A stretch of DNA of 64,000 nucleotides from a virus (IMGVR_UViG_3300027419_000030:5062-69061); one strand, 5' to 3'. Numbered from the stretch's first letter, positions 9,547 through 30,052 are shown. Numbers and translations: made by a program. The notes: a model not told the origin generated them from the sequence alone.

Positions 9547-9730
9547 TACCAAATTTTTTAAACAATTCATCAATATCTACTCCATAGGGAGTAGATTTTT
9601 CAACAGACTCAAGAATAGATTTAGAAATCTCTAACTCCTCTGGCGAAGCCAGAGGAGAAGAAGTAATTTTATTGGAAGGAACTACGATACCGAACGGAGG
9701 GAAGGATCGCGGGACAGATGGTTGAGACAT
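9524..9730 (-). CDS. Hypothetical protein
   Basis: Fills the gap after the large fibre gene; overlaps its end. Confidence 0.35.
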   Translation of the reverse strand: MSQPSVPRSFPPFGIVVPSNKITSSPLASPEELEISKSILESVEKSTPYGVDIDELFKKFGTKLLSSQ

Positions 9731-12498
9731 ATATGTCCTTTAGTGGTAATAGTATAAGTTTCTTGCTGCAAAATGCTCTCAGCACCTACACCAGAGGGAT
9801 TGAGAATACTATCACCAGAACCACCAGATCCAGCGTTACCAATATCTCCTACGAGAGCATCAGGAGATGAGTAAAACATCAAATCCGCAGTATCTTTATC
9901 AGTACCATTCCGGGGATTATAGAGATACAGGAACGTAAATCCAGAAACTACAAGATTTTGATAAACTTGATCGGTAACTGGATAATAATGCCAAAAAACA
10001 TTAGGATATAGCATTTCAGTATCATCATCAGGGAACAAGTCAACAGCTTCGCTTCCAACTGCCGGAACCACAGTCCCGGCAGGGGTAATATAGCGATAAA
10101 CAGGATGATATACACTGGTGTGAGCACCATACCCTTTACCGGACCATATGAAAACGATGTTTCCTTTATTATCTATGAATGATTGACCTGAGAATTGATT
10201 ATATCCAGACGCAGCCTTATTTGGACTAAGATTTGTAGCTGCGCTCCAAATCTCGGTAACAACGGAGCGTTTTCGGTAGAAAACTTCTTTGATAGCAGTA
10301 CCTGCATCAGTCCATTTACAGTAAAACAGAAAAACATTACAATCCTTGTCAGTAATAATGTTTCCAGGAAATCCTACATACGAATCAGTATCAACATTTT
10401 CAACAGCACCCCAAGAACCACCAGAATACTTACAATATTCAAGAGATTGGTTAGTAGTAGCATTAAACCACGCCGTATGGATATCGCCTTGCGAGTCGAT
10501 ATCCATAGAGGGATAAAGCATGTGGTTATCGGAAGTTGTTAGGTCTACTCTAGCTCCAAGGGAGCCGGAAGTGAGTTTTTTGTAACAAATCCTGGCTCTG
10601 CCGAGATTAGTGTTAAGACCCTGAGCAGCCCACAGAAAATGCAAATTATCATTACCATCAGCCAAACAAACTCCTTCAAATGAAGGATAATACTTTTTTA
10701 TCAAACTTATATTTACGACAGCAGCTTGAACACCGAGAGGAGAAATGTATCTATAAAATAAATCATTACCATGCCGAGTGCAATCTATTTGAGTATCAAC
10801 GCGCCAAGTTCTAGGCATGATTCGAGAAACTAGATTGGAATATGGATTAAATGCGATATTATAATTATGCGTATGAGAACATGTAGCATATTGTGTATTA
10901 TAACCAGATAAACTAATTCTATTATTGCACCCACCGGAGGTGGGTGCAATAATAGAAGTAACAATATCATCATGGTCATGAGTAAGAACACCACTGAGAT
11001 CAGAATATGTTGATTTGCCGACAAAATGCTTTCCATTAAGAGTTTCACCAGTAGCAGATAAAGATGTCATTGAAGTAAGCAAAGATGCGCTTCCAAGCAA
11101 TAAAAGAGCATTTTGAGCAATAACGGTTAGAGGAGAAGTAACTTTACCAAGAATAAGACCATATGCAGGAGGATTATTAGAAGCATAACTATTATAAAGT
11201 GATCCAGAATGCTCGTGAGAACACTTAGAAACTTGACTACCAGACGTACCGCCAGATAAACAATACTGATTACCATTAAAATTATAAGTTACAAGATGTC
11301 TATGCTGCAAAGCACCAACAACAGTTCCAACATCATCAGAACAATAAATAAAATAGTTATCCTGATCAGAATAGCGCGAATATCCAACGGGAACGTCAGA
11401 ATTAAATGGAACTATTATATCGGCAGGAAGAGATGTAGGAATTCCATAATAACGGAGCAATTTAAGAGATCTGCTAACAGGAAGAGATGAAGCATTTCCA
11501 ATACTGGTATTATGAGCGGTATGATGCCAACCAAATATAGCAGAATCGCCGCCATAGCCTTCCCATAGCTTATCAACACTACCATTGACTTCTCCACCGG
11601 AAATGGAAGCTCCATGCTGATGAAGATTGTATGCATCAGGATCGCTACCAAGAGCAGGATAGGTAGTACCTTCTTCGCCTCCAAGGAGACGATGATAACC
11701 TACGCCACCAGCGCCAGATACCAATTCAAAGCCATCGGGAGTAGAACCGCCACAGAAAAGCCAATAAGTAGGAAAAGTGACAAGATCGTTTCTAGTATAC
11801 GTTATGTGAATGCCATTATTCTTGTCGCAAGTGATGGAAGGCATGATATAATGCTGTCCATCGTCGTTATCGACGATGGTAGCAACCCACTTTTCGCCAC
11901 CATTAGTAGATTTTAGGTAAACTACGCGAGAAAGACCAGAAATAATATAAGAACAGACTGCATGAATAGAACCATCCGGAGTTTTTACTATATGCCTGGC
12001 AGAAACAGGAAATAAAATCATCTGAGATTGCATTAATGAACCAGAAAGCCAGGATGTGATGGCAGGAAATTGGATGGCAGCCGCAATAATAACATTGGTA
12101 GAAGCAATATCAGTAACTACATTCTTATGCCAATCATCCGACAAATTGTCATCGCTTTGCGCAGGAAGATCCACAGAGGCCCCTATATCCTGAACGAAGG
12201 GAGCATCACCAACAAACACTTGCTGGACACCAGCAGGACCAATTGAAGCCTTATGCCATATCTCGGACTCATTGAGGCCTGTAGCATAATTAGAAAGCCA
12301 CGCCGGAACAGGCTCACTGGCTAAATCGAGAACACGTTGATCAACTGGAATAAGTTTAGAGGAAACAAGAGCAGGATCAATAGCAGTCCTATAATTTAAG
12401 ACAGGATCATTGGTAGGATTAGTAATAATTATTGCAGAAATTTCTTTAGACTCAGAAAGAGATTGAGCCATCTTAGTCTGAACATGAGCCTGATCCAC
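9682..12498 (-). CDS. Large spike/fibre protein with beta-propeller-like segments and repeated His-x-His needle modules (probable start 12471)
   Basis: S-x-N/D-G-G-x-x-W BNR-like motif; multiple HxH motifs (HQH, HRH, HEH, HDH, HTH) as in trimeric phage fibre tips; D-x-x-G-x-I-H propeller repeats. Confidence 0.65.
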   Translation of the reverse strand: MDQAHVQTKMAQSLSESKEISAIIITNPTNDPVLNYRTAIDPALVSSKLIPVDQRVLDLASEPVPAWLSNYATGLNESEIWHKASIGPAGVQQVFVGDAPFVQDIGASVDLPAQSDDNLSDDWHKNVVTDIASTNVIIAAAIQFPAITSWLSGSLMQSQMILFPVSARHIVKTPDGSIHAVCSYIISGLSRVVYLKSTNGGEKWVATIVDNDDGQHYIMPSITCDKNNGIHITYTRNDLVTFPTYWLFCGGSTPDGFELVSGAGGVGYHRLLGGEEGTTYPALGSDPDAYNLHQHGASISGGEVNGSVDKLWEGYGGDSAIFGWHHTAHNTSIGNASSLPVSRSLKLLRYYGIPTSLPADIIVPFNSDVPVGYSRYSDQDNYFIYCSDDVGTVVGALQHRHLVTYNFNGNQYCLSGGTSGSQVSKCSHEHSGSLYNSYASNNPPAYGLILGKVTSPLTVIAQNALLLLGSASLLTSMTSLSATGETLNGKHFVGKSTYSDLSGVLTHDHDDIVTSIIAPTSGGCNNRISLSGYNTQYATCSHTHNYNIAFNPYSNLVSRIMPRTWRVDTQIDCTRHGNDLFYRYISPLGVQAAVVNISLIKKYYPSFEGVCLADGNDNLHFLWAAQGLNTNLGRARICYKKLTSGSLGARVDLTTSDNHMLYPSMDIDSQGDIHTAWFNATTNQSLEYCKYSGGSWGAVENVDTDSYVGFPGNIITDKDCNVFLFYCKWTDAGTAIKEVFYRKRSVVTEIWSAATNLSPNKAASGYNQFSGQSFIDNKGNIVFIWSGKGYGAHTSVYHPVYRYITPAGTVVPAVGSEAVDLFPDDDTEMLYPNVFWHYYPVTDQVYQNLVVSGFTFLYLYNPRNGTDKDTADLMFYSSPDALVGDIGNAGSGGSGDSILNPSGVGAESILQQETYTITTKGHICLNHLSRDPSLRSVS

Positions 12499-13014: not shown

Positions 13015-13019
13015 CCGCA

Positions 13020-13181
13020 CTATCCGCGCTCATGCGGGAGCGCGGATAAGGGAACTTTTCGTACAAGCGGATGAAATATCAGTTTCTCTACTCCTGGTTC
13101 ACGCGAAACGGGAACCATGACGGGATTTACCTCACCAATCACATTGGAATTGATTTTTTTAGTTATTTCAGTAGTTTTCAT
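13020..13181 (-). CDS. Small hypothetical protein (53 aa)
   Basis: GAGGT RBS; ATG overlaps stop of upstream beta-helix gene. Confidence 0.4.
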   Translation of the reverse strand: MKTTEITKKINSNVIGEVNPVMVPVSREPGVEKLIFHPLVRKVPLSALPHERG

Positions 13182-14152
13182 GCAACATACCTCGGAATAA
13201 ACGACGATCCTTGGAAATGCGGGTATGAGAGAGGCGAATAATCGTAGTTGTAGTAGCATTGAACCGGAACATCGGCTATTCCGTCGTGATTTACATCTTG
13301 ATACCAACCAGAATACCCAAAGAAGTTATTATTTATGAAATTTCCACTAACTTGCTGATCAGAATTCATATCACAGATATCAATAGAAGAATTGGCAAAA
13401 AACATGTTACCGACTATAGTATGAAGCCCATTGGCTTTTACTTCAAAGTAAATTCCGTTATAACACGAGTCAAAAACATTCTTTTTAATAAGAAATCTTT
13501 GAGCATTATTCAAGTTGCAACCTTGCCCGGCAGTAGCTACAGTTCCAAACTTCTCAATATAGTTTTCCTCTATAACACCGTCTACTGAAGGATTTAATGC
13601 ACCATCGCAACGTACGCCAATCGTATTTAAACCATAAAGCCCACTCAAATGATTATTGCGAAGCAAAATCTTGTCACAATCATTTAAAAGAACAGCCGTA
13701 CGTTGAGCTAATCCATCAGAATTTACTTCTACATAACAATCATGTATTTTATGTCCAGGACCAGTAGCCTCCAATGCATTAGAATTGGTAGATACGAGTG
13801 CAATACCTTCGATTTCTGAATATCCCACTTGCAACGCAAGTGGGACACCAGAAAGAGGAGAAATTTGAACTTTATCTACTCCGGCCTGAACTACTCCGTG
13901 AATAATTACATTTTCTTTATCTATTACGACATTTTCCTGATAAGTTCCACTTTTAACCCAGATTTCCATCCAAGATTCGAGAATATCTGTAGCACCAGCG
14001 AAAGTTTCCTTAGGGCGATCCCATGAATAACCATCATTTTTATCGCTTGCATTTGATGCACTTTGATCTACGTAGATCGAAGTGCTTCCACCTTTAGAAA
14101 AATTAAGTTTTCCACTGGCATTTCTAATAGATGAGATACCTTTAGCTGGCAT
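13178..14152 (-). CDS. Parallel beta-helix (NosD/pectate-lyase-like) virion protein
   Basis: YVDQSASNASDKNDGYSWDRPKETFAGA, VKSGTYQENVVI and repeated I-x-x-N-x-F coils. Confidence 0.75.
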   Translation of the reverse strand: MPAKGISSIRNASGKLNFSKGGSTSIYVDQSASNASDKNDGYSWDRPKETFAGATDILESWMEIWVKSGTYQENVVIDKENVIIHGVVQAGVDKVQISPLSGVPLALQVGYSEIEGIALVSTNSNALEATGPGHKIHDCYVEVNSDGLAQRTAVLLNDCDKILLRNNHLSGLYGLNTIGVRCDGALNPSVDGVIEENYIEKFGTVATAGQGCNLNNAQRFLIKKNVFDSCYNGIYFEVKANGLHTIVGNMFFANSSIDICDMNSDQQVSGNFINNNFFGYSGWYQDVNHDGIADVPVQCYYNYDYSPLSYPHFQGSSFIPRYVA

Positions 14153-14155
14153 TTA

Positions 14156-14620
14156 TTAAATCACCAACTCAGTAGTAAGAATCTGCTCATCTAAGTAGGA
14201 AAGTACCTTCTTTATCATAGGAGAAGTAATAAACTCATCAACTTCTTTATCGGTCCACTCACCAGGGGTGGCGTCTAGGGAAAATACCAAATTAGCATTA
14301 GAAGACCATAATAAACAGGCAAAGATTCTAGTTTCACCTAACTGATAATTAATAAATTCATCAGGGCCTAATATCGCAGGCTTGGAAGATCCTTTTTCAT
14401 TATGAATAGTTCTGTAATACAGATAATTATCTCCAGAACCACCAGCGTGGTTATGAATCATCAGGCTCTTAGCAGGAACTTTGAATCCTTGAGATTCATC
14501 TCCGATGAAATTACAAAAATAAATCTCGCCATCACCGCCTTGAGTAAACTCGTGGCGAGTGACAACGAAATGACCTTGATTATATCTACTGGATATCGCC
14601 ATCGAGGTAAATCCTACCAA
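14156..14620 (-). CDS. Probable small beta-sandwich virion protein
   Basis: In structural operon; beta-strand pattern. Confidence 0.45.
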   Translation of the reverse strand: MVGFTSMAISSRYNQGHFVVTRHEFTQGGDGEIYFCNFIGDESQGFKVPAKSLMIHNHAGGSGDNYLYYRTIHNEKGSSKPAILGPDEFINYQLGETRIFACLLWSSNANLVFSLDATPGEWTDKEVDEFITSPMIKKVLSYLDEQILTTELVI

Positions 14621-14948
14621 GGAACCTGAAATTAGCTATAACGCTGGCACCGGCTCCATAGCAAGAAATGGCCTGTCCTGGCGCGATAGGATAATTACAG
14701 ATAGGAATGCCTTTAGGAGCATAGAAGGTAGACACTGAATTTGCATCTTTTCCGCCAATCTCAAGCCGAGAATCACCACCTTCAGATACGATCATAAAAA
14801 ATTCAGCATCAGGAGGAACTTGAATAGCCTGCGCATATCCATTATTAACCAACCTAAAGCCACCAATATCCCTTAGAGCCGTTTCACGGCGCGTAGGAAC
14901 GCGCCGGGAAAGGGGAGTTTCAGGCTCGATCAAATCTTCTCCGAACAT
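14586..14948 (-). CDS. Probable small beta-sandwich virion protein (single jelly-roll-like)
   Basis: 120 aa with alternating hydrophobic pattern; directly downstream of capsid-like gene. Confidence 0.4.
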   Translation of the reverse strand: MFGEDLIEPETPLSRRVPTRRETALRDIGGFRLVNNGYAQAIQVPPDAEFFMIVSEGGDSRLEIGGKDANSVSTFYAPKGIPICNYPIAPGQAISCYGAGASVIANFRFLGRIYLDGDIQ

Positions 14949-14951
14949 GGT

Positions 14952-15935
14952 CTAAAGCACTCCTGCCTGGATGGATTTCGCGGTCTTGGGGTAATCAGTA
15001 ACCAATTTCTGTGCAGCACTGCGGGCAACTGCGGAATTAAACGGCAAATTCCACTTGATGTGGTCGGCTACATTCAATTTTCTAGTGCCATAGATAAAAC
15101 CACATGGAACAGTATTTGCACCTGTACCAGTTGCAGATTCTACACGCACTTCAAGTGATTTGATACACGGAACGTAGCATTTCATGTAAAATTGATCAGC
15201 CATGCCAGTTACATCGAGTTTCATATAACTTGCATCAATATCACGATCAACGACAACAAATGTATCTGATGCAGTACCAGCAGCAAAACAGGAAGTGTCA
15301 AACATAACTCCAAGAAGAACAATCAATTGAGAATTCGGATTGGGAATATTAATCTTGGAACCACCAATGATAGATTCGGCACCAGCGGCCATAGCAGTCA
15401 TATTCTTTTCAACGCAAATTACTTCATCAAACATTTTTGCAGGATCTATATTAAGCAAGCTTTGATGATATGGGATAGTTCCAAGAGAAAGGTTATCTTC
15501 GAGCTTAAGCATTTCGGAAATTGCGACTTCATCAGTGTCTAGCTGTATTTTTTCTCGGAGCTTATCCACGGGGAGAGGCCTTCTGAAAGTCATATTCCAG
15601 CGAGAGCGGACATTGGTAGTAGGACCGCCTGCGGTCATAATTCCAGTGAAATCGAGAGTTTCCCTGGCAGTAATTTTAACGTACCTGCCAGGATCGCGCA
15701 AAGTTTGAGCATTAGATCTGATTCGCGCACGTTCGGAGGAATCTGCGGAGATTACGAGATCAAGATTTGCCGTCTGAGTAAAAACCTCTGGATTCTCTAC
15801 AACGCATCTCCTATCATTGAGTAGATAGGATGCAATTTGTTCGCCGCTAGTGCTTATAGAATCTTCATTGATGCATTCTATAAGCATCTCAGGGAAATAT
15901 TTTGTCTTCGCAGGATCAATTATAGGATTAGCCAT
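14952..15935 (-). CDS. Capsid-like all-beta protein (candidate second or minor jelly-roll capsid protein)
   Basis: 327 aa, two beta-rich halves each followed by a short helical segment; first gene of a structural operon; fold is inference only. Confidence 0.4.
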   Translation of the reverse strand: MANPIIDPAKTKYFPEMLIECINEDSISTSGEQIASYLLNDRRCVVENPEVFTQTANLDLVISADSSERARIRSNAQTLRDPGRYVKITARETLDFTGIMTAGGPTTNVRSRWNMTFRRPLPVDKLREKIQLDTDEVAISEMLKLEDNLSLGTIPYHQSLLNIDPAKMFDEVICVEKNMTAMAAGAESIIGGSKINIPNPNSQLIVLLGVMFDTSCFAAGTASDTFVVVDRDIDASYMKLDVTGMADQFYMKCYVPCIKSLEVRVESATGTGANTVPCGFIYGTRKLNVADHIKWNLPFNSAVARSAAQKLVTDYPKTAKSIQAGVL

Positions 15936-16048
15936 ACACTAGAACAGAAAGCCGATTAGATTTAAGGGGAATAGAAACAGACAGAAACAAACAATGAAAA
16001 GTAGATACAATCAAAACAGTTAAATATAAGAAAAACATAGTATTAGGC

Positions 16049-16321
16049 ATGGCATCATTAGGAAGAATGAAGATTTACAACCAAAGTGGCACATTCCGAG
16101 CAACGATGCCTAAAGAATGGATAGGATCAAACAGAATTAAATCGAAAGATGGATTGGACATAATAGTAACACATGCAATAATAGTATTGCCGCCGAGAGA
16201 ATTAAATAACGAGGAAATGGAGGAGGTAGTACGGGACTTCAGACAGCTAATAAAAGCAAGATCGATACTTCTAGCCTCAAAGACCCAAGAAACGACCCAA
16301 AATACACCGAAGGGCTTGTAA
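16049..16321 (+). CDS. AbrB/SpoVT-like transcription regulator
   Basis: GTFRATMPKEWI...I..KDGLDI pattern; divergent from structural operon. Confidence 0.55.
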   Translation: MASLGRMKIYNQSGTFRATMPKEWIGSNRIKSKDGLDIIVTHAIIVLPPRELNNEEMEEVVRDFRQLIKARSILLASKTQETTQNTPKGL

Positions 16322-16496
16322 AAACAATAGAAGAGCTAGAGAAAGTGTTAAATAGTTTGAAAAAGAACGAGATTGTACTTTATAACGCGAGCAAGGGGCC
16401 GCTACTTATGAAGAATAATCCTAGAAACAGATGCGAAAAAGGAAAAGAAACAGGATTAGTCAGAATTCAGATAGATTACATGGAGATGAATTAAAA

Positions 16497-16937
16497 ATGG
16501 CAGCACAAGGAACTTCAGCACAGCCTTACATTCCAGGAAGCGCAAAGACGGCAGTACCGCAGAAGCAAGTAACTCAGACAGTAGCAAAGAAGGAGCTTAC
16601 ACGAGATTTGCTTGTGAAGGCGGTTACAGATGAGAAGAATCTGCGAACAATCGCACAGGAAACAGGAAATACCATTCATGATGTGAGAGAGGCACTTAAG
16701 TCAAACGGACTTAAGACGGCATCGATGAAGGACGGCGCAGGAAAACTCGGTTTCCGAGAACTTAACAAGGTCTTCAGCACAATCCAGGCAGGAACCGGGA
16801 ATGTAGCCGGAATTGTAGCCGCAACGGGCCTAAGCGAAGTAGTAGTCAAGGTAGCCATCAGAAAGCTAAAGCGCGACGGAGATATCATAGACTCCCTCTC
16901 CGTTCCACAGGCTGCTGCTACGCAGCAGTCAATGTAA
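16497..16937 (+). CDS. Protein with two HTH/wHTH motifs
   Basis: LRTIAQETGNTIHDVREAL and VAGIVAATGLSEVVVKVAIRKLKRDGDI; start placed at ATG 16497. Confidence 0.55.
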   Translation: MAAQGTSAQPYIPGSAKTAVPQKQVTQTVAKKELTRDLLVKAVTDEKNLRTIAQETGNTIHDVREALKSNGLKTASMKDGAGKLGFRELNKVFSTIQAGTGNVAGIVAATGLSEVVVKVAIRKLKRDGDIIDSLSVPQAAATQQSM

Positions 16938-17027
16938 AAAAAAACGGAACGACAGAACGAACAGAAGAGGAACAAGCAAATTTTCTACTTTTAAGCGCCT
17001 CGCGCAAGCGAGGCGCTAGGAAGTTAC

Positions 17028-17333
17028 ATGGAAAATCCTGATAGCACGAAAGCAGTTCAGGACATGATGTTATTGCCTTATGCAAAAAAGATAGAAAAGA
17101 AGATTTCTATTACGAAGAAACGAGAAACTACTTCGAAAACACTACTTACGGCACAGGGCATAAGGCATGGAGAGAAATGCTGTCGGTGTGGCCTGAATTG
17201 CGAAGTAAAAAGGAAAGAATCGGTAGAATATGATCGAATCTTCAATGAAGATCCGATATATAAACTAGAAACATGCCCTAAACAGGGAAAACTTGAAAAA
17301 TTGCGAATAAAAAAGAAGGGAAGGAAGAAGTGA
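17028..17333 (+). CDS. Hypothetical protein, possible Zn finger
   Basis: CCRC.LNC...C motif. Confidence 0.45.
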   Translation: MENPDSTKAVQDMMLLPYAKKIEKKISITKKRETTSKTLLTAQGIRHGEKCCRCGLNCEVKRKESVEYDRIFNEDPIYKLETCPKQGKLEKLRIKKKGRKK

Positions 17334-17338
17334 TTTAA

Positions 17339-17620
17339 ATGGAACTTGAAGCGAAATTGGATGGAGTAGAAAGAAAGGAAAAGCTGATTCAGAGAAAAGA
17401 TGAAGCTACGGGACAGAAAGTAGACGACAAAGAAGTTTTTTACACAGCAAAATTCGCGATGAAGAAGATAAAACTAGAAAAAGATTCAGGAAACGTAAAA
17501 GAAGGAACTAGCGACCCTTGGCTGCGAATAACAATCTCTAGCTACGATGAAAAAGTATTCGAAAGCTTCAAGGACGCTAAAATGGGAGATCCTGTATTAA
17601 TCTCAGTGGATTTAGTCTAA
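17339..17620 (+). CDS. Hypothetical protein
   Basis: Clean ORF between hairpins. Confidence 0.5.
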   Translation: MELEAKLDGVERKEKLIQRKDEATGQKVDDKEVFYTAKFAMKKIKLEKDSGNVKEGTSDPWLRITISSYDEKVFESFKDAKMGDPVLISVDLV

Positions 17621-17668
17621 ATCGCGTCGCGCCTGTAGGCGCGACGCGAGAAGAGAGGAGGTAAAAAT

Positions 17669-18226
17669 ATGATAATTAAAAAGAATTTGTACAAAGTAAA
17701 AGAAAATTATTTCGGATTAGGAAGTTGTAATGTAACAACACCAATGGAAAATATAAAATTAACTATAACCGAATTAACAAAGGAAAAGAGGCAAATAAAC
17801 GAGGAAATGAGTGAAATACTGAATACTGTAGGAAAAGGAGCAAGTTTTATAGAGCACATGGGAGAAATTGATATAGAATTAGGAAACGTAGAACAGAAAT
17901 TACAGATAGAAGTGAATGAACTGAGAAGAATGAATAGTGAATACATAGACAGGATAAACAAATTGGAAGACAGATGCAAAAAAAGTTCAATGGAATATAA
18001 CAACGTAGTGTATAAATCAAGAGAAATAGTAAGTGAAGTAAGAAATCTACTGCATCAAATAGAATCAAGCACGGGATATGAAACAGAATACGCCGCAGGA
18101 TGGTGGTTTACTTCAAAAATAGTAATAAAACAGGATAAAGAAGGAAAACCAATGAAAATACTAAAGTGGAATAGATATTTAGATGCAGCAATAAACAACG
18201 TAGAGAGTGAAATAAATGGCAGTTAA
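17669..18226 (+). CDS. Coiled-coil hypothetical protein
   Basis: GGAGGT RBS; heptad E/K/L-rich pattern. Confidence 0.5.
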   Translation: MIIKKNLYKVKENYFGLGSCNVTTPMENIKLTITELTKEKRQINEEMSEILNTVGKGASFIEHMGEIDIELGNVEQKLQIEVNELRRMNSEYIDRINKLEDRCKKSSMEYNNVVYKSREIVSEVRNLLHQIESSTGYETEYAAGWWFTSKIVIKQDKEGKPMKILKWNRYLDAAINNVESEINGS

Positions 18227-19199
18227 ACTGGCATACCAGCTTTACTCGGTGAGACATCCAAGTGAAGCAGATTCTCGTCTTTTTTCTTCAGGACTTTTTG
18301 CATGGGTGGAAGCTTTCGCAAGATACGGGCGAGAAGCGATAATGAGTGCAGATATAAAGAAGGAAAATCTTGAAAATTACGACATTATACATGTAAACTA
18401 CACTCCAACAAACGAAACTTACATTACAGCACTGAGAAACGAGCTAGGAGAACACTCTGATACGAAGATAGTAGCAAATGTAGATTTCGGGAAAATGATG
18501 TGGAATTCTACGGACCCATTGGTCATGAAAGATCAACTTAGTCGGGCAGATATGGTATTCCACGTAGAAAGCACTGGCGCTAAAACGCTTGAACGGCTTT
18601 TAGGAAGAAAAGTTTATACAATTCCTCACCCGACAAACGTAGAAGACCTAAAGAAAGGTTTCACAGCAGAAAGATCGCCAGTAATAACCTGCCAATATCA
18701 CAGATATAGTGATACATGGACGGATTACTATTACGGATTAATGAACATAAAAAAAGAATATGATGTAAGCACAGCTTTATTGAATTACGAAGCTCCAAAA
18801 GGAGAACACGGCCCAAAAGTACCAATAATTTGTATGTTCAATAAGCTTGTAATGAAACTGCCTTATGCGACATACATTGACCTGTACTTGCGGCACTCTT
18901 TGGTAAATGTAGACATAACTTATGACTACACGTTCGGAAGAGGAGAAATTGATGCAGCAGCTTTGAAAATACCAACTATTGGTAGCTGCACAATAGAGGC
19001 CCAAAGAAATCTATGGCCGGAATTAGCAGTTACACCAGGGAAAGAATGGGAACTGGAAGATACAATGAGAAAGTTATTAGATAACACGAAATTTAGAGAG
19101 GAAATGGCACAGCAGGGATATGAAAGATGCGAAGCATATTCATTGAAGAGCAGTTATGAGAAGATGGTTACAGCTTTAGAAGAGGAGAAGTTGATATGA
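18216..19199 (+). CDS. Glycosyltransferase, GT-B fold
   Basis: YDIIHVNY, ADMVFHVES, TFGRGEIDAAALKIPTIGS (E-x7-E-like GT4 region). Confidence 0.75.
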   Translation: MAVKLAYQLYSVRHPSEADSRLFSSGLFAWVEAFARYGREAIMSADIKKENLENYDIIHVNYTPTNETYITALRNELGEHSDTKIVANVDFGKMMWNSTDPLVMKDQLSRADMVFHVESTGAKTLERLLGRKVYTIPHPTNVEDLKKGFTAERSPVITCQYHRYSDTWTDYYYGLMNIKKEYDVSTALLNYEAPKGEHGPKVPIICMFNKLVMKLPYATYIDLYLRHSLVNVDITYDYTFGRGEIDAAALKIPTIGSCTIEAQRNLWPELAVTPGKEWELEDTMRKLLDNTKFREEMAQQGYERCEAYSLKSSYEKMVTALEEEKLI

Positions 19200-19876
19200 A
19201 ATCTATCGAAAAACAAGAAAGAAAACTAAAAATATTACAAAATATCGTAGAATTGATAGAGGCATCATCAGAAATTGGAATGAATTATTCCAGTATTAGT
19301 ATAGAAAAAAGAAATAATTTTAAAAATGCATTGGAAAAATCACTAATACAATGCATGTTAATGCAAAAAGAAAACGGAATGCCAGAAAATTATGCAATGA
19401 AAGTGTATGAAAACGCAAACGAATGCTTGATAGGGGCACTGACAGCAGCAACACGTTTAATGAGCGAAGAAAACACCCAAAAACAAAACATGGAAATACA
19501 AACAATATGGAGCAACGTATTACAACTATGTGAAATGTTTAAAATAGACACGGTGGAAATTGAAAAAGAAAACAGAATGAAAATGGAACTTGTAGTAGGA
19601 AAATCGATAGTATTCAATTACGAAACAGGAATGATATCAACACAGATAAGAGCAAGAAAAAGAGATGGATATAAAAAACTAGGAGACAACGAAACAACAT
19701 ACCAGATACTAATAGAACTTAAAAAATTGGGATGGGCAACAGTAAAAATATGTGATGAAACATTGTCGATGATGAAATATAGCACAACAGAAAAACTAGA
19801 TGAAAACATAAAAAATTTACTGAAAGAATTAAACAAATTCGGAGAAACGATAGACATGTCATATATAAAGGAGTGA
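19196..19876 (+). CDS. Hypothetical protein
   Basis: Translationally coupled between two glycosyltransferases. Confidence 0.55.
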   Translation: MKSIEKQERKLKILQNIVELIEASSEIGMNYSSISIEKRNNFKNALEKSLIQCMLMQKENGMPENYAMKVYENANECLIGALTAATRLMSEENTQKQNMEIQTIWSNVLQLCEMFKIDTVEIEKENRMKMELVVGKSIVFNYETGMISTQIRARKRDGYKKLGDNETTYQILIELKKLGWATVKICDETLSMMKYSTTEKLDENIKNLLKELNKFGETIDMSYIKE

Positions 19877-20817
19877 TTGGTATTAAAGTTTTACTTTTAG
19901 CAGAAACAGATAATGCACAACAACATTTCCTATTGGCGCAAGCCATGCGGAAATATTTAGGGTGGGAAGCTAAATCAATGGTATGCAGGGAGACTTATTT
20001 AGGATATCCTACGGATTGGACAGTAGAAAAGGACATGGATGAAGCAGCAGAATACGCAAGAGACGCAGATCTGTTTATTTTGCAGGACCAATTGTTTGAT
20101 TTTGAAGAAATTCCTTTGAGAAAATGGGCAACTCACAAAAATACAATAATTAATGGTACAGGAAGTAGATTGCGCGAGAGAGTGGATTATTGGAGAATGG
20201 AACAATTCAGAGGTTGGAAGATCGTGCCGATGTTGTGTGACACTACACTTTCAACTAAGATATGCGCACCACCTTTTGAGAATTGGATAGTACCAATAGA
20301 AAGAATAAACGAATTAACGCAGGGAATAGAAAAAAATAACAAAATTTCGGTATGTCATGCACCAACAAAGATGAGATATAAAGGAACAGAACGATTTGAA
20401 AACACAATAAGTGGATACATCGAATCGGGAGAAATAGAATACAAGAGAATAACGGGTTTAACGTGGGAAGAAGCTATAAAAGAGAAGGCAAAGTATCACA
20501 TAGTATTTGATTCATTGGGAGATACACATTATAACGCCGGAAACTCCCTTGAGGGGTTAGTATTAGGGCAAACTGTAGTGAGCAATATAGATCCTTGGTG
20601 CTATTGCTTACATCCAGACTTGCCAATGGTAAGTGTATGGGGATACAAAAACGAACAAGAATTAGGAGACACGATAGCAGATGCAATAACATATGAACAA
20701 ACAGGAGGATTATTCGTAGGAAAAGAAAAAGCAAAAGAATGGGTAATGGAACACTTCGGAGCAAAGAATCAGATATTTAAATGGGCAAATTACATAAGGT
20801 GGGTGCAGGAAAAATGA
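19873..20817 (+). CDS. Glycosyltransferase, GT-B fold
   Basis: VCHAPTKMRYKGT, HIVFDSL...GNSLEGLVLGQTVVS pattern of GT4-like enzymes. Confidence 0.75.
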   Translation: MIGIKVLLLAETDNAQQHFLLAQAMRKYLGWEAKSMVCRETYLGYPTDWTVEKDMDEAAEYARDADLFILQDQLFDFEEIPLRKWATHKNTIINGTGSRLRERVDYWRMEQFRGWKIVPMLCDTTLSTKICAPPFENWIVPIERINELTQGIEKNNKISVCHAPTKMRYKGTERFENTISGYIESGEIEYKRITGLTWEEAIKEKAKYHIVFDSLGDTHYNAGNSLEGLVLGQTVVSNIDPWCYCLHPDLPMVSVWGYKNEQELGDTIADAITYEQTGGLFVGKEKAKEWVMEHFGAKNQIFKWANYIRWVQEK

Positions 20818-21080
20818 TACTTCAAGCAAAAATCAATTCAAAGTACCTAGATGACATACTATCCGGTAAAAAAACGCAAGAATTCCGGCAATTCACAGGA
20901 AATGACTATATGATGGTGGTTGACGAAACGGGACGAAAAGCACAACTAAGAATAAAAAGAATAGCAGAAGCATGTCCGGCCCTAGAGAAAGGAATAAAAG
21001 AAGTACACAAAGACATAAATTGGGACAGCACCGAACCAATTATGGTAATAGAAGTAGAACCAGTAAAATCTCCGCGCTGA
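20814..21080 (+). CDS. ASCH/PUA domain protein
   Basis: INSKYLDDILSGKKTQEFR ASCH signature. Confidence 0.75.
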   Translation: MILQAKINSKYLDDILSGKKTQEFRQFTGNDYMMVVDETGRKAQLRIKRIAEACPALEKGIKEVHKDINWDSTEPIMVIEVEPVKSPR

Positions 21081-21106
21081 AGCGCGGAGATTTGGAGGAA
21101 TTTTTA

Positions 21107-21394
21107 ATGAAAGGAAATCCAATTTGGACATTAGAAGAAATAGAACAGATAGTACGAGAATTAATAGCACAATCTGATCAGGGAGTACATATATTTGAAC
21201 TAAAAATTGAGTGTGTTCCAGTAGGAATAGCAGAACGGAAAATAATAATGTTAGTGGATTATTTGAAAACAAGAAGAATAATATACGAAGACAAGAAGGG
21301 GATATTGCACAAAAATCCAGATTACATCGAAAAGAAGAAAGAGGGAAGCCCATGTAAATTGTGTGAAGACGCATATAAGATATTAAATAGTTAG
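21107..21394 (+). CDS. Winged-helix-like protein
   Basis: GGAGG RBS; IIMLVDYLKTRRIIYEDKKG wing pattern. Confidence 0.45.
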   Translation: MKGNPIWTLEEIEQIVRELIAQSDQGVHIFELKIECVPVGIAERKIIMLVDYLKTRRIIYEDKKGILHKNPDYIEKKKEGSPCKLCEDAYKILNS

Positions 21395-21414
21395 GAAATC
21401 AAAGAGGCATTTTT

Positions 21415-21564
21415 ATGATACAGAAAAACGAAATAGCAAAAAACCTACGAGAAATCGCAGATAAAATAGAAAATGGAGAATATATACAAAACACGTCAAT
21501 GATGGTAACCCATACAGCAATAATGGGACCATACACGATAGAAATAAAATACGTGTCAAGATAA
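21415..21564 (+). CDS. Small hypothetical protein (49 aa)
   Basis: GAGG RBS; MIQKNEIAKNLREIADKIENGE. Confidence 0.45.
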   Translation: MIQKNEIAKNLREIADKIENGEYIQNTSMMVTHTAIMGPYTIEIKYVSR

Positions 21565-21622
21565 AAAAAATATATTCTCGCGCCAGCAGGCGCGAGAATA
21601 AAGAAGATTTGAAGGAATTTTT

Positions 21623-22078
21623 GTGACGATGACGCACAGACCTGAGTTGGACGATTACTTCATGGAGATTGCAAAGGTAGTAGCAAGAAGGTCTACATGC
21701 TTGCGACGAAAGGTTGGTGCAGTATTTGTCAAGGACAAAAGAATTTTGTCTACTGGATACAACGGCGTGCCAAAGGGTCTTCCTCACTGCGAGAACACCG
21801 GATGCCAGCGCGCAGATTATCCAAGCGGAACCTATCACGAAATTTGTCGGGCGGTACATTCAGAGCAGAACGCCATAGTCCAGGCTGCAATACACGGGGT
21901 AAGCATTGAGGGGGCGACCCTTTATTGTACTCATCAGCCATGTGCTCTATGCGCAAAAATGCTGATAAACGCAGGAATTGTGCGAGTAGTCTATGAAGAA
22001 GATTATCCTGATGATGGATCTCTTGGTTTTCTAAAACTTGCTGGAATAACAGTAAAAACCAGAAGAATAAATGATTAG
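21623..22078 (+). CDS. dCMP deaminase
   Basis: [28 protein letters not shown] zinc ligands. Confidence 0.93.
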
Positions 22079-22105
22079 ATTCTCGCGCATGATGGCGCGA
22101 GAATC

Positions 22106-22513
22106 CTAAAGATCCAGAGTTGTTCCTTCGCCAACCGCGGTATAGAACAGTACGAGATTCTTCTTGGCACTTCCTACAGCCATCTTCGCGGGAAGCGTGG
22201 TAGTTCTGTCGATTCTAATCCACCTACCGCCTTTCTCGAATCCGGCGACCTGAAGACCACTGACAACCTCACGATTATTAACTCCGCCAGTACCTCCAGT
22301 ACAGGTAGACCTACGAGAATAAAGTCCATCATTGGAGCCTACAGCGGCGGCAGTGAGAATAATATCCTCGATAGCAGGTGCCCTACTAGGAAGTCGAATC
22401 CACAGACCAGCGACACCGAACAGCGCGCCATAATACACGCCACCTGAATCGCTCTCATAAAAGGTGGTTTCCCCACTGGTAATAGAAGTGAGTTGCCACT
22501 CAAATTTAGCCAT
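22106..22513 (-). CDS. Small beta-rich virion protein
   Basis: GGAGGT RBS; immediately downstream of the major capsid-like gene. Confidence 0.5.
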   Translation of the reverse strand: MAKFEWQLTSITSGETTFYESDSGGVYYGALFGVAGLWIRLPSRAPAIEDIILTAAAVGSNDGLYSRRSTCTGGTGGVNNREVVSGLQVAGFEKGGRWIRIDRTTTLPAKMAVGSAKKNLVLFYTAVGEGTTLDL

Positions 22514-22515
22514 CT

Positions 22516-23745
22516 TTAGACCTCCTTCTCGTTAAGCTCATACCTGATACCACGAGAATAGACGCCAGCAGCATTGCGGTTAAGAGCACTCCACCCATCA
22601 ACAGCAGTTCCATCGTCCTTCTGTTCGATAGAGCCAATTTCGTTCCAGACGATAAACGGCTTGGGAAGCTTCGTAGGGCCAGCATATACGAACGTACCAG
22701 GATCTCTGGTAGCAGGCATGGCAAACGGGTTCTTCGCGGCCTGCACCTCGTACACCTGCTCAAGCTCGCGACCAGAGCGGCGCAGCCACAGATTCTTAAT
22801 TACGCCAGTGGGCGGATTCTTGAAACCAAGATGGGTAATCTTCAAGGCATCGCGCTTGGTAAAGTCCCAATAAAGCTCGTAATACTTATCCTGGACCTGC
22901 TGACTCTGCATTACGTACTGGTAATACTCATTTACCGTAGTATCTGCCATCTGTTTAGCAAAGACGGAGAAGACATGCAGCTTGGGCCTATCCTGCTCCA
23001 TGCCGCCAGGGAGCTTACCCCAATGTTCCTGCGGCTCAAATGTACCCTGTTCAGGAATCATATTCTTGATCGGGTTCGATGTGAGCTTAGACCTGACAGG
23101 CATCTTCTCAGCGACTTCGAGATCTCCGAGATCGAAATCACAGTTAAGAGTGTTTCCATCGTAATAGTGCTGACCTGTATAAGCGCTCTGGAACTTCAAG
23201 AGATCCTTGAGCTTCTGAACTCCCTGGACCTTGACCATCCACAATCTAACGGTGAGATCCTTGGTAAGAGCTACGCCGCCTTCGGTAGAAGGCGGGCAGG
23301 TAACTTCTACCTCAATTGCCTTACCACTTGGAACCTTCGGGCAAGCCTCTTCAGGCCGACCACCCATAAGCATGGGCAAACCAAAATTGATCGGCATAAC
23401 ACCATGTCTAAGGCCGACAGCCGCAAGAGGATCAGGCCGGAACGGGCTAAACCCAGGAGCAGTTAGCTCATTAAATACCTGATCATTATAGGACTGACCA
23501 CCAATATACACCTTAACGGTATCAAGATGCTCATACATGCCGTTCTTGACACCTGCAAATATCTCAAGTCCTGCAATTTCTCCGAAACCCTCGGACGGGA
23601 TTACAAGGGGCGTTGCCTGATTTTGCTGTTCGCCACTAACCTTATAGGCCGAAGCCTCACCAACCTTAGCAGCATTTCCTACTGCAAGATTCGTGGTGGC
23701 GAATGCAAAATTGAAGTCGAACGGTTCAACAACATACGCAGCGAT
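22516..23745 (-). CDS. Candidate major capsid protein (double jelly-roll-like); extended to a putative ATC start
   Basis: Frame open 69 codons upstream of the annotated ATG 23538 to an ATC 7 nt after GGAGG; strong C/G-ending codon bias; all-beta two-domain pattern; fold is inference. Confidence 0.5.
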   Translation of the reverse strand: MAAYVVEPFDFNFAFATTNLAVGNAAKVGEASAYKVSGEQQNQATPLVIPSEGFGEIAGLEIFAGVKNGMYEHLDTVKVYIGGQSYNDQVFNELTAPGFSPFRPDPLAAVGLRHGVMPINFGLPMLMGGRPEEACPKVPSGKAIEVEVTCPPSTEGGVALTKDLTVRLWMVKVQGVQKLKDLLKFQSAYTGQHYYDGNTLNCDFDLGDLEVAEKMPVRSKLTSNPIKNMIPEQGTFEPQEHWGKLPGGMEQDRPKLHVFSVFAKQMADTTVNEYYQYVMQSQQVQDKYYELYWDFTKRDALKITHLGFKNPPTGVIKNLWLRRSGRELEQVYEVQAAKNPFAMPATRDPGTFVYAGPTKLPKPFIVWNEIGSIEQKDDGTAVDGWSALNRNAAGVYSRGIRYELNEKEV

Positions 23746-23853
23746 TCAAATTCCTCCAAAATAAGACTGAAACGTGATTATATATAAACAAAATAGACTT
23801 AAACAGTAAATGAACGAAAACATAATATAGTAATAAAACAACATATACAAAGA

Positions 23854-25811: not shown

Positions 25812-26291
25812 TCATGTACTGAAGCATTTTTGACACATTTTAAACTGAGTTTGCATTGCAGACACATTATCTATGGTGCAATAGAATTTATTGGACTTAC
25901 TAACTGAAAGAAGGCCATTATCTGTGAGCCACTTTACACACGCCATAACTGTAGACTTATCGAGTTTAGTTCCATCAACAATTTGCTGCAATGTCTGACA
26001 ATCCTTCTCGAACATGGCAGAAACAGCCTTTAAGTTATCAAGAGAAACCGCGTCACCAGAAGCAGCAGTGGTAGCAGGGAGAGTAACAGGTGTAGAAGGA
26101 GACGCAACTTCCGTTTCTTCAGCAGAAGAAACAAGATTACCTTCTTCTGTCTCAGATAGAGATTCGGCTACAGGAACAGTACCGAAACTAAATTCTTGTG
26201 TCGATTCCGTAGTACTTGAGGAGGAAACTTTAGTAGAATTATCAGTTGAAAACTCCTCAGTTATAATGCCTTCATCAAGGATATCAGCCAT
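25812..26291 (-). CDS. Acidic low-complexity protein with C-terminal winged helix
   Basis: LQQIVDGTKLDKSTVMACVKWLTDNGLL. Confidence 0.5.
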   Translation of the reverse strand: MADILDEGIITEEFSTDNSTKVSSSSTTESTQEFSFGTVPVAESLSETEEGNLVSSAEETEVASPSTPVTLPATTAASGDAVSLDNLKAVSAMFEKDCQTLQQIVDGTKLDKSTVMACVKWLTDNGLLSVSKSNKFYCTIDNVSAMQTQFKMCQKCFST

Positions 26292-26304
26292 ATTATATCA
26301 CCTA

Positions 26305-27018
26305 TTACGCATTTCTTGTATAAATTCCTACTTGGATCTTAGTGGTAGTCCCCCACGTGCGCGGGTTTCCATCAATATACATAGTTTTATTTATCGTAAT
26401 TTCCCTAGAAAGCCACGTAATTCCGCCAGGATCTACAACTGGAATAATAGAAGAGGCAAAATCTACGGAAACACTCTTTTTATATTGATCAGTTAGTTTC
26501 AAAGTCATCCAACCAGACCAAGTTTTATTACCAATATTCTTAAACTCATAAGAAAATGTAGTAATTCCATCAAAATTTAATGTAGACGGGACCATTTTAC
26601 GATTGCCGGTAGCTCTGAGAAGCGGCCTATCGAGTGTGTGAGTTTCTATGAGAGAATTTACATCATCAAGTACAGATTGTGCAGCAGTAGTAAGTTTGTC
26701 AGAGTAATCTTTGATATAAGTAGAAAAATCAGTAGCTTCAGCAGTAGTAGTAATAGTTTCATTATAATCTATAGAAGCATTTTGTGCGCGAGTGCTAAAT
26801 AGAGCTAGAGCTTCATTAATCTTGGAAAGAACTTCATTTCTAGTACCATTGAGCAACGTAGAAATAGCAGTCCTGAATTTAGTACCATCAACATATATTT
26901 TAACGGGATGGAGCTTAATATACGGGGCAGCTACATCTATAGCATGCCCTAATAGGGCATTAGCATCGCTATATGCAAGAGAAACCTGTGATTGTGCTAA
27001 TTCGAGAGAAGTAGTGAT
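26305..27018 (-). CDS. Helical protein with C-terminal Ig-like domain; extended to a putative ATC start
   Basis: Frame open 54 codons upstream of TTG 26856; the extension is homologous to the upstream paralog (HPVKIYVDGTKFR vs HPIYIDGSDYR). Confidence 0.55.
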   Translation of the reverse strand: MTTSLELAQSQVSLAYSDANALLGHAIDVAAPYIKLHPVKIYVDGTKFRTAISTLLNGTRNEVLSKINEALALFSTRAQNASIDYNETITTTAEATDFSTYIKDYSDKLTTAAQSVLDDVNSLIETHTLDRPLLRATGNRKMVPSTLNFDGITTFSYEFKNIGNKTWSGWMTLKLTDQYKKSVSVDFASSIIPVVDPGGITWLSREITINKTMYIDGNPRTWGTTTKIQVGIYTRNA

Positions 27019-28787
27019 GAAATCCCCCCAACGGTATTAACAATGATAGTAGGTATCACATTATCACCAAGTTCATCTAAATTATAAATCAAACTGCCAG
27101 GAACTATGATACTGAATGATTTGGTTTGGCCAGGAAGCAAAGATTCAAGTCCAAGGCGCTTGTTCCACTTGAAGTAAGGAACTTCATAATCACCAGTATA
27201 AGTTTCACCAGTTTCCTCAAGATAATTAGCAGCATAAGTATCGTAATCGACAGAAGAAGTAAGCCTTATACCAAACCAACCTTGCCATGCAGCCAAACCT
27301 ATATTTATTACATCGAATGTAAATTTGTTATTATAAACAGTGACATCATCACTAGTATCATCGGTATCTTTATCATCTACGTACGAAAGTGTTTTAGTTA
27401 TGCTGGCAGGCGCGGTACTAGCACCTGTGTATCTAAGCAAAGGTGGTTTTGTGTAATATTTATCAGTGACGCGAGTAAGATATGAAGATAAACCATCTGA
27501 AACGGTACTTAATTTAGTAGAATAAACAGTAAAGTAATTAGAAATTCGATCATTATACTTATTAATAGCAGTAGACAATTTGGATTCAATAGTAGCCAAC
27601 TGTTCTTCAGTTAGGCCAGGAACATTATTGTTGATATAGGAGATTACATCGGTCTGAAGAGATTCAAGAAATGAACTATAATTAGAACTAATAACATCAG
27701 TTTTAGTATTATACTCATTGATTATAGAATTAACTTCATCAGATAATAACTGAGAAGCACCATTTACAACAGTGGCTTTACCATTTCTATAATCAGAACC
27801 ATCGATATAAATGGGATGATAGGCATCTTTGAAATATCTATCAATGATCTTGATGGTCCCATTAGCTCGTTCAGATAAGGAAGACACCAAATTATTGAGG
27901 TTATTGCGAATTCTAATAGATTCGGTGAACATCTTGGATGAAAGAACGGTAATAGCAACAGCGAAAGCATAATCTGCTTTGTTATACAAATCGGATGAGA
28001 GATTAGTAAAAAGAGCAGATATATTTGCATTTGACGAAGCCAATGCAGAACTTATACTGGCTTGACTAGAAACTATGAGATTTTCAGCAGAAGAAGACCA
28101 ATATTTATATAATGAAATTGAATCATTATACGAAGTATTAGCTTTATCAATGGCATCATTATATGTATCTGAAATTTCTGTCAAAATGTTATTTACATCA
28201 GAATAAAAACTCGGAGGAAGAGTTTTATAGGAAGCATAAATAGACTTCAATCTATCTATGGACTCTTGAGCGTGCTTATCAGCACGCTCAATTGAACCAA
28301 GATACGAATCTGTTAGATAATTAATATAATACTCGGAAGCTTTAGTCTGGGCAACGGTTAAAGCGGAAGAAAACTTGGTGCTTGCAGAAGTAATGAGATT
28401 TCCGACTTTAGTAGTGGCTTCTGTGGAATAGGAAGATATATGAGAAGAAAGAGAAGTTATTTCACTCTGTATAGAATCAAGTTGCTGCTGGGAAGTAATC
28501 ATTGAATTAGAAACGTACCTATTTATGGATTGAGAGCACTTTTCAACAGCAGCAGACAAATCTACAACGAAATCTCCATAAATTCCAGACGTAGAATCAC
28601 CGATGCCAAGCGAAAAAGCAACAGTAACTTTATCAAACACATCAGTAGACGTAATAGGCTCGTAAGGAACTGCTTGGATCTGAGAAATGATGGGATTCAC
28701 TAAAGAATCGAGCTTTTTCTGAAATCGTGCAACAGATTGATCTATATCAGAATCAAATATTGCACGAATTTCAGATAAACTATTCAT
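26997..28787 (-). CDS. Ser-rich helical/coiled-coil protein with C-terminal Ig-like domain (virion)
   Basis: Long amphipathic S/A/Y-rich helices; FTFDVINIGLAAWQGWFGIRLT motif. Confidence 0.6.
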   Translation of the reverse strand: MNSLSEIRAIFDSDIDQSVARFQKKLDSLVNPIISQIQAVPYEPITSTDVFDKVTVAFSLGIGDSTSGIYGDFVVDLSAAVEKCSQSINRYVSNSMITSQQQLDSIQSEITSLSSHISSYSTEATTKVGNLITSASTKFSSALTVAQTKASEYYINYLTDSYLGSIERADKHAQESIDRLKSIYASYKTLPPSFYSDVNNILTEISDTYNDAIDKANTSYNDSISLYKYWSSSAENLIVSSQASISSALASSNANISALFTNLSSDLYNKADYAFAVAITVLSSKMFTESIRIRNNLNNLVSSLSERANGTIKIIDRYFKDAYHPIYIDGSDYRNGKATVVNGASQLLSDEVNSIINEYNTKTDVISSNYSSFLESLQTDVISYINNNVPGLTEEQLATIESKLSTAINKYNDRISNYFTVYSTKLSTVSDGLSSYLTRVTDKYYTKPPLLRYTGASTAPASITKTLSYVDDKDTDDTSDDVTVYNNKFTFDVINIGLAAWQGWFGIRLTSSVDYDTYAANYLEETGETYTGDYEVPYFKWNKRLGLESLLPGQTKSFSIIVPGSLIYNLDELGDNVIPTIIVNTVGGISSLLLSN

Positions 28788-29683: not shown

Positions 29684-30050
29684 CTATTTCACCATCACCA
29701 GGATCTCTACGAATTTCATCAACGAGTTTGATAACTACGGACTTGAATAGCTCAAATTCAGCGTCACTACTATTTATCATTTGCATAAGACTAGGCCAAT
29801 TGACATCAATGAATTGAATAAGAACCAAACCGATGCCTTTAATGTCCATGCCATTAATAGCCATTTTAATCTGATCGGCATACGAGATAAACATATCATT
29901 GCCACAAATAAGAGAAACAATATCATCGGAAGAAAGAATACGCATCTGAGCATATAACTCAACTGCATAATCCTCAGATGGGAAATTATCTGTATGCGAA
30001 ACATGGCCAAGCATGGTATAAACTATGGGATTAACTAAAACTTCGCCCAT
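29664..30050 (-). CDS. Hypothetical protein
   Basis: Coupled in operon. Confidence 0.5.
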   Translation of the reverse strand: MGEVLVNPIVYTMLGHVSHTDNFPSEDYAVELYAQMRILSSDDIVSLICGNDMFISYADQIKMAINGMDIKGIGLVLIQFIDVNWPSLMQMINSSDAEFELFKSVVIKLVDEIRRDPGDGEIDGNVQG

Positions 30051-30052
30051 AA

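Follow-up and report, generated by a model that had tools for sequence, protein, structure and literature searches.

The virus record IMGVR_UViG_3300027419_000030 in IMG/VR is 69,061 bp long, and its bases 5062-69061 make up the 64,000-nucleotide stretch of DNA analysed here (the window, whose numbering is used throughout). Its minus strand encodes a 409-residue protein with a predicted double jelly-roll (DJR) fold and a 327-residue protein with two jelly-roll-like domains, a pair of genes conserved across a wide lineage of similar genomes. The reading favoured here, with a probability of about 0.72, is that the record represents a tailless icosahedral double-stranded DNA (dsDNA) virus with a 69-kb genome, in which the 409-residue protein is the major capsid protein (MCP), the 327-residue partner and several small proteins serve as vertex or accessory proteins, and packaging proceeds independently of an ATPase. 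An earlier interpretation of the same DNA (the original prediction) had proposed a large-genome tailless virus of archaea, built on two capsid-like jelly-roll proteins.

For each of the two open reading frames (ORFs) singled out in that proposal, over 20 homologs exist (36-90% identity), so these are genes rather than chance ORFs. The AlphaFold2 model of the 409-residue protein, made from a 21-sequence alignment, is mostly β-structure (predicted local distance difference test score, pLDDT, 89.7; predicted template modelling score, pTM, 0.89). Foldseek comparison of this model with the PDB returned PM2 P2 first (probability 0.99), then PBCV-1 Vp54, an iridovirus MCP, the STIV MCP, and PRD1 P3. 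With VIA-align, the model superimposes on PRD1 P3 at Z 10.9 (root-mean-square deviation 4.5 over 259 residues, spanning model residues 2-408); the other full-length alignments are to the STIV MCP (Z 9.5), PBCV-1 (8.4), PM2 P2 (8.1), faustovirus (7.8), and FLiP (7.3). An unbiased VIA search of 48,161 PDB representatives, run without a Foldseek pre-filter, placed three GH172/DUF2961 enzymes (Z 10.8, 10.3, and 10.0), PRD1 P3 (10.1), and the STIV MCP (9.8) at the top of the full-length matches, followed by PM2 and PBCV-1 (both Z 8.1). Lower in the same search were PHM, an Orf virus scaffold of the D13 type (Z 7.5), FLiP, phiCjT23, PNGase F, and African swine fever virus p72; the sole non-DJR match above Z 8 was a single-domain match to the SPV1 capsid protein. 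In the model, one chain carries two eight-stranded jelly-roll barrels in succession, as do the DJR MCPs that are the hallmark of Bamfordvirae. On this modelled structure the 409-residue protein is a full-length DJR, an assignment that we regard as solid, and from its fold and gene context it appears to be the capsid protein.

Neither this protein nor its 327-residue partner matches any entry in Pfam, PHROGs, NCBIfam, or the PDB sequences, and PDB sequence searches with profiles of the two gave nothing meaningful. Likewise, a tblastn search of 50,697 phage and archaeal virus records with the capsid protein as query was negative, and residues 70-409 match no Pfam family, including DUF2961 and the glycosidases, at E≤0.1. 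The family itself is extensive: when 1.84 billion representative proteins were searched with its profile, 125 clusters emerged at E≤1e-3, including a remote group of 340-390-residue proteins that likewise lack Pfam and PHROG matches. Within the genome, the capsid gene has by far the highest GC content at third codon positions (GC3) of all genes, 0.52 as against roughly 0.18-0.45 for the others; this is expected of the most highly expressed gene, and the GGAGG ahead of its start belongs to the same high-expression signature.

The start of the capsid gene is unusual. The first ATG in the frame yields just 340 residues (22516-23538). Upstream of it the frame continues uninterrupted to position 23745, where an ATC comes directly after an in-frame TGA and 7 nt past GGAGG. 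Homologs of 404-412 residues, most with methionine at the start position, align over 99-100% of the 409-residue reading; the same arrangement of stop codon, GGAGG, 7 nt, and ATC is found in a relative whose protein is 70% identical (L003, ~9990-10003; window 23743-23760). Because homologs span the full length and the ATC context is conserved, the longer coordinates are taken as correct: the 69-residue amino-terminal extension is real, with ATC 23745 as the apparent start codon. Three homologs (P0006, P0011, and P0015) also carry isoleucine in place of the initiator methionine. It appears that the most highly expressed gene uses a conserved non-canonical start.

The 327-residue partner begins at an ATG, and its AlphaFold2 model (pLDDT 87.0, pTM 0.88) is again mostly β-structure: two sandwiches at residues ~1-121 and ~167-286, joined by a helical linker and followed by carboxyl-terminal helices. 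All of its VIA matches are to single domains and none exceeds Z 8.9: the Ena spore appendage and XepA (both 8.9); chain b of HHIV-2 (8.1); the SPV1 capsid protein (7.8); and CUB domains. Matches to vertex proteins are weak (STIV A223 turret protein, 7.2; PRD1 P5 knob, 6.8), and searching BFVD with the model gave just generic β-sandwich, receptor-binding, and tail-fibre matches with template modelling (TM) scores of at most 0.30. The expectation that both predicted structures would be jelly-rolls was therefore borne out, whereas the claim of two capsid-like jelly-roll proteins stood for the 409-residue protein and failed for its partner, which on its model is jelly-roll-like and not a DJR capsid protein.

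IMG/VR assigns direct terminal repeats to the record, and its completeness by CheckV is 100%. Its two ends have in common 66 bp of an (ACCAGC)n repeat, into which the last ORF of the window (62844-64000, continuing into L001:1-90) runs. Because this end repeat lies inside coding sequence, the contig closes on itself through a gene. The 69-kb genome is complete, and the window is most of it. (The "terminal repeat" of the record is a coding tandem repeat at the point of assembly closure, and not necessarily a physical genome end.)

Five related genomes in IMG/VR trace the lineage outward. G001 is near-identical (69.4 kb); G002 (67.6 kb) has a capsid protein 70% identical; and G003 (67.6 kb, terminal repeats, 48% GC) has one that is 30% identical. 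Each of these three encodes homologs of both the 409- and 327-residue proteins. Genes common to the window and G003 are those for the capsid protein, the 327- and 154-residue proteins, two glycosyltransferase-like proteins, a primase-helicase, and a superfamily 2 (SF2) helicase, together with the genes for 830-, 525-, and 248-residue proteins and a module at 25812-31270. In the remote relatives G004 (42.4 kb, 61% GC) and G005 (53.8 kb, 114-bp terminal repeat, 43% GC), similarity to the window is detectable for two proteins only, namely the capsid protein and a 304-residue homolog of the 327-residue protein (E ~1e-10). Their genes form a single block, in the order small hydrophobic proteins, capsid gene, 139-residue ORF, 304-residue partner gene. 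Genome sizes in the lineage are 42-84 kb, and many homologs of both large proteins lie on contigs of 51-84 kb. By sequence comparison, these two genes are the pair conserved at the core of a broad lineage. Since the partner is the only other protein common to the remote relatives, encoded one small gene past the capsid gene, it is probably a vertex protein or a second or accessory shell protein.

Equally characteristic is what sequence profiles and motif scans failed to find. In six-frame searches of the whole 69,061-bp record, including the 5 kb outside the window, none of the profiles Terminase_6N, Phage_capsid, and Phage_portal had a match at E≤10; per-ORF Pfam and PHROG scans of the record revealed no HK97 capsid, portal, or terminase, and the PHROG scans gave no structural match beyond β-helix and coiled-coil. 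The absence of HK97-type genes, first noted for 64 kb, thus extends to the complete genome. A packaging ATPase belonging to the FtsK/HerA/A32 type, expected to lie elsewhere in the genome, did not turn up: FtsK_SpoIIIE, Pox_A32, and DUF87 have no six-frame match in the record, which makes the case stranger rather than weaker, and the FtsK profile has no match in G002-G005. Walker A motifs occur in just two proteins, the primase-helicase and the SF2 helicase, and the same is true of G002 and G003. A small P-loop protein of G004 and G005 was considered as a packaging ATPase and rejected, being an AAA_24/Sak4-like recombination protein.

The archaeal connection is through the family B DNA polymerase (PolB): across 93-96% of its length it shares 50-54% identity with chromosomal PolBs of Methanothrix, Methanosaeta, and Methanotrichaceae. 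Every named match among its best 120 belongs to these three groups, some on contigs of ~3 Mb; identity to the PolBs of haloarchaeal tailed viruses is just ~25%. Because of this affinity the host is probably Methanothrix, an acetoclastic methanogen, in keeping with the original proposal of an archaeal virus, and the host lineage is the probable source of the gene. The cellular-type PolB, foreseen as a trait of the lineage, is indeed present in this genome and in G002, but it is missing from G003, G004, and G005; judged from gene content, PolB is not a core gene, and the replication module can be swapped among members of the lineage. (One related PolB, P0073, of 1253 residues, contains an intein domain.) The genome's DNA was found in groundwater sequencing runs, with small shares of its sequence words in landfill runs; no RNA run was among the runs carrying it. 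Bacterial labels attached to the capsid gene were rejected as host evidence, since they are mutually inconsistent, come from short contigs, and look like mis-binning: a genome-contig scan yielded one 2.9-kb contig labelled Gammaproteobacteria, and metagenome-assembled genomes holding cluster members are labelled Minisyncoccales and Bacilli. According to a paper on archaeal sheaths (PMC11576556), the viruses and proviruses linked to Methanotrichales to date are of the head-tailed type.

These results suggest a model for the particle and its genome. The shell would be built of trimers of the 409-residue DJR protein, with the 327-residue partner and the 135-, 120-, and 154-residue proteins forming five-fold vertices or decorating the shell. 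The β-helix and His-x-His (HxH) proteins (Table 1) would act as spikes, attaching to the host envelope or cutting it. Replication would be carried out by the virus's own primase-helicase and SF2 helicase and, in this branch, by the PolB of the host lineage. Because the genome contains no gene for an FtsK/HerA/A32 ATPase or a terminase, DNA is proposed to enter the particle by a route that uses neither.

Several points weigh against this model. The 409-residue protein is matched equally well by cellular GH172/DUF2961 enzymes and by viral capsid proteins (Z 10.8 versus 10.1-10.9), so the fold alone is no proof of a capsid role; all Z values to capsid folds are moderate, at sequence identities of 5-11%, and the case for particle assembly draws on a single-chain model plus gene context. 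A 69-kb dsDNA genome devoid of a packaging ATPase is without precedent among DJR viruses (PMC5894146). Hallmark genes were sought by sequence, and structures were predicted for the 409- and 327-residue proteins; fold comparison identified no penton protein. In this genome the surroundings of the capsid gene encode few membrane proteins; a scan for hydrophobic segments, its output dominated by ORFs antisense to genes on the A-rich strand, showed no clear membrane-protein cluster. Finally, the host assignment draws on one non-core gene, and short contigs with the capsid gene have been binned under three unrelated bacterial labels.

The GH172/DUF2961 matches, top or joint-top in the structural search, are one reason to ask whether the DJR protein is a capsid protein at all. 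It could instead be an enzyme or lectin of that kind, or a transient scaffold like D13 (hence the Orf virus match), in which case the particle, perhaps not icosahedral, would consist of some other, unrecognised protein. Assembly around a nucleoprotein core would fit the missing packaging ATPase, and the giant uncharacterised proteins (1457, 830, and 525 residues) and a six-gene module are conserved. Yet no Pfam DUF2961 or glycosidase match appears even at E 0.1; the gene belongs to the core of five virus-like genomes and shows the most pronounced codon bias of the expression type; its block also contains genes for small proteins and a jelly-roll partner, as is usual for a DJR morphogenetic module (PMC5894146); and no alternative capsid candidate was found. 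These considerations make a non-capsid role improbable. A tailed virus of the HK97 type, whose capsid, portal, and terminase have diverged beyond the reach of profile searches, is less credible still. Many large ORFs do lack annotation, a 596-residue coiled-coil protein has a weak "tape measure" PHROG match (E 2.5e-4), and known viruses of Methanotrichales are head-tailed (PMC11576556). A terminase, however, needs a Walker A ATPase, and both P-loop proteins of the genome are replication helicases; the six-frame searches were negative even at permissive thresholds; the ORFs that might fill these roles are low-complexity, coiled-coil, or β-helix proteins; and a conserved, highly codon-biased DJR gene is present.

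A narrower question, internal to the DJR virus interpretation, is whether the partner, instead of being a vertex protein, is a second MCP in a heteromeric lattice. Both genes show the same degree of conservation (30-32% identity to G003, 22-25% to G004 and G005) and are near-adjacent in the remote relatives, and each domain of the partner resembles the single jelly-roll capsid proteins of SPV1 and HHIV-2. But the partner has no full-length match to a DJR protein or to a two-MCP capsomer, its Z values fall within the range of chance folds, and its GC3 (0.35) is ordinary, unlike that of the capsid gene. Moreover, a full DJR protein is normally homotrimeric and tiles the facets alone, as established for PRD1, STIV, and PBCV-1. 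Two major shell proteins are therefore rather unlikely.

Among described DJR viruses, the present one resembles Tectiliviricetes (PRD1 of Tectiviridae, STIV of Turriviridae, PM2 of Corticoviridae), with which it shares the single-chain capsid protein of two jelly-rolls and full-length VIA matches, small and jelly-roll accessory proteins encoded beside the capsid gene, and spike-like proteins. It differs in genome size, in having no detectable FtsK/HerA packaging ATPase and no sequence similarity to a known MCP family, in its cellular-type rather than protein-primed PolB, and in lacking a small membrane-protein gene cluster near the capsid gene. In prokaryotic viruses, DJR capsids are known only together with very small genomes; these span ~7-18 kb, and only the smallest (Odin, FLiP) have no ATPase (Yutin et al. 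2018, PMC5894146); the complete 69-kb genome upholds the earlier statement that it far exceeds known DJR viruses of this kind. The Odin group, compared by description only, similarly combines a DJR capsid gene with no detectable packaging ATPase, comes from sediment and anoxic metagenomes, and has PolB and glycosyltransferase genes sporadically, but its genomes are the smallest among DJR viruses and the present lineage is ~10 times larger (PMC5894146). Chaacviridae and Ixchelviridae of ANME-1 (Coyopavirales; also compared by description only) are likewise tailless DJR viruses of archaea, with a Methanomicrobia-related host and capsid proteins that have no known sequence similarity and were recognised only by AlphaFold2. 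Their genomes are linear, 10-11 kb, with inverted repeats and a protein-primed PolB (PMC9894754), as opposed to 69 kb, direct terminal repeats, and a primase-helicase here. The cellular GH172/DUF2961 proteins, despite their full-length structural similarity, differ in context: the gene described here is a core gene of virus genomes and is not part of a carbohydrate-use locus.

The capsid is of a known kind; what is new is the size of the genome, the lack of a packaging ATPase, and the conserved partner. The genome is four to seven times larger than that of any described prokaryotic DJR virus, and a literature search found no description of prokaryotic DJR viruses this large or of tailless Methanothrix viruses, so that a lineage of large, ATPase-less DJR viruses of archaea is probably undescribed. 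A bolder claim falls a little short of even odds: that this is a new high-rank prokaryotic DJR lineage of 42-84 kb, defined by the DJR and two-jelly-roll pair, whose large dsDNA-filled capsids form without a packaging ATPase or terminase, implying an encapsidation mechanism undescribed for large dsDNA viruses. To our knowledge, large DJR viruses are known only in eukaryotes. If the interpretation is right, archaeal DJR viruses of 42-84 kb mean that large DJR capsids evolved in prokaryotes as well, a point relevant to ideas on the origins of giant eukaryotic viruses; and a tailless virus type would be added to those of Methanothrix, a key acetoclastic methanogen. The missing packaging ATPase poses a concrete, testable question about how DNA enters the particle of a 69-kb dsDNA virus.

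Table 1. Positions of the principal genes and modules in the window
Position	Strand	Feature	Basis or conservation
1844..4498	+	Family B DNA polymerase, cellular (Methanothrix-like) type	Pfam DNA_pol_B, E 1.5e-106
5361..7118	-	585-residue β-helix protein, tailspike-like; amino-terminal hydrophobic signal or anchor	Atlas model
9682..12498	-	938-residue protein with five HxH motifs; possible fibre	HxH at residues 293, 399, 428, 507, 542
13178..14152	-	324-residue right-handed β-helix; probable spike or receptor-binding protein	71% identical in G002
14156..14620	-	154-residue protein, third gene of the 327-residue protein operon	78% (G002) and 37% (G003) identity; no family match
14586..14948	-	120-residue protein, second gene of the 327-residue protein operon	56% identical in G002; no family match
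14952..15935	-	327-residue ATG ORF, two jelly-roll-like β-sandwiches; candidate vertex (penton/turret) or second shell protein	AlphaFold2 model, conservation
21623..22078	+	dCMP/cytidine deaminase	Pfam dCMP_cyt_deam_1, E 1.2e-26
22106..22513	-	135-residue product of the gene just downstream of the MCP gene; candidate minor capsid or penton protein	Conserved position
22516..23745	-	Putative MCP, 409 residues, DJR fold	AlphaFold2 model, full-length structural matches
25812..31270	-	Six-gene module of low-complexity, coiled-coil, and Cys-cluster proteins (405, 128, 299, 596, 183-241, and 159 residues)	
47634..50624	+	996-residue primase-polymerase with CHC2 zinc finger and P-loop helicase	Pfam Prim-Pol, E 4e-10; Zn_ribbon_DnaG

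As originally described, each of the two large genes is followed by small ORFs on the same strand: the 135-residue ORF behind the capsid gene; and the 120- and 154-residue ORFs, then the 324-residue β-helix gene, behind the partner. The 135-residue protein is 66% identical in G002, and a remote relative (L018) has a 139-residue ORF in its place. G003 encodes three tandem paralogs after the capsid gene (L012:6908-7333, one at the contig junction, and L009:147-557), which may be diversified vertex or decoration proteins. The protein has no match in Pfam, PHROG, NCBIfam, or the PDB sequences, no model in the Atlas, and Atlas feature matches below 0.9; aligning its family with those of the 409- and 327-residue proteins by hhalign revealed no relation.

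Neighbouring β-helix, HxH, and coiled-coil proteins, all part of the first description, were found as well. The 324-residue protein matches Pfam NosD (E 1.8e-4, below the curated cut-off) and a PHROG "tail protein" (E 1.2e-3). For the 585-residue protein, whose residues 1-19 are hydrophobic, the Atlas model matches clusters of β-helix, pectate-lyase, and tailspike proteins at TM 0.47-0.55 (0.52-0.55 for the β-helix and tailspike clusters). The same protein is not a terminase or portal. Residues 2-658 of the 938-residue protein are 73% identical in G002; the protein was not detected in G003 and has no significant family match. The coiled-coil-like protein is the 596-residue product of the module at 25812-31270.

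The gene order of this module is kept in G002 and, weakly, in G003. Its proteins (the 405-, 596-, and 299-residue products being low-complexity, coiled-coil, or Cys-cluster proteins) have just weak matches of the coiled-coil type, and by sequence none resembles an HK97 capsid, portal, or ATPase; they are likely virion-associated or scaffolding proteins. Within the module, the 183-residue protein (26305-27030) is paralogous to the carboxyl-terminal β-domain of the 596-residue coiled-coil protein (26997-28787). The L003 homologs match both, and the G003 counterparts have 729 and 411 residues. Elsewhere, at 36983-46173, four abutting genes encode proteins of 1457, 830, 525, and 248 residues in which no enzyme domain is present. 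The latter two contain PEGA domains, and the last three are conserved in G003; all four may be internal or ejected virion proteins. The 996-residue primase-helicase (Walker A motif APPRTGKT) is 38% identical in G003.

Three genes are of the homing-endonuclease type: HNH plus AP2 (24021-24536), Myb-like plus LAGLIDADG (33749-34963), and LAGLIDADG plus helix-turn-helix (L001:4408-5532). The HNH-AP2 gene adjoins the capsid gene, and a homolog is likewise located beside the capsid gene of G003.

The plus strand is A-rich regardless of gene direction (for example, 16000-22000 compared with 5361-15935). The frequency of A at third codon positions is ~0.45-0.6 in most plus-strand genes versus ~0.11-0.26 in minus-strand genes, which suggests a strong strand-specific mutational bias, for example through long single-stranded exposure during replication. 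Many plus-strand genes also have a perfect GC-rich hairpin directly 5' of the Shine-Dalgarno sequence and start codon, at sites that include 475-520, 16990-17030, 17620-17668, 53657-53704, 59395-59436, and 60720-60769.

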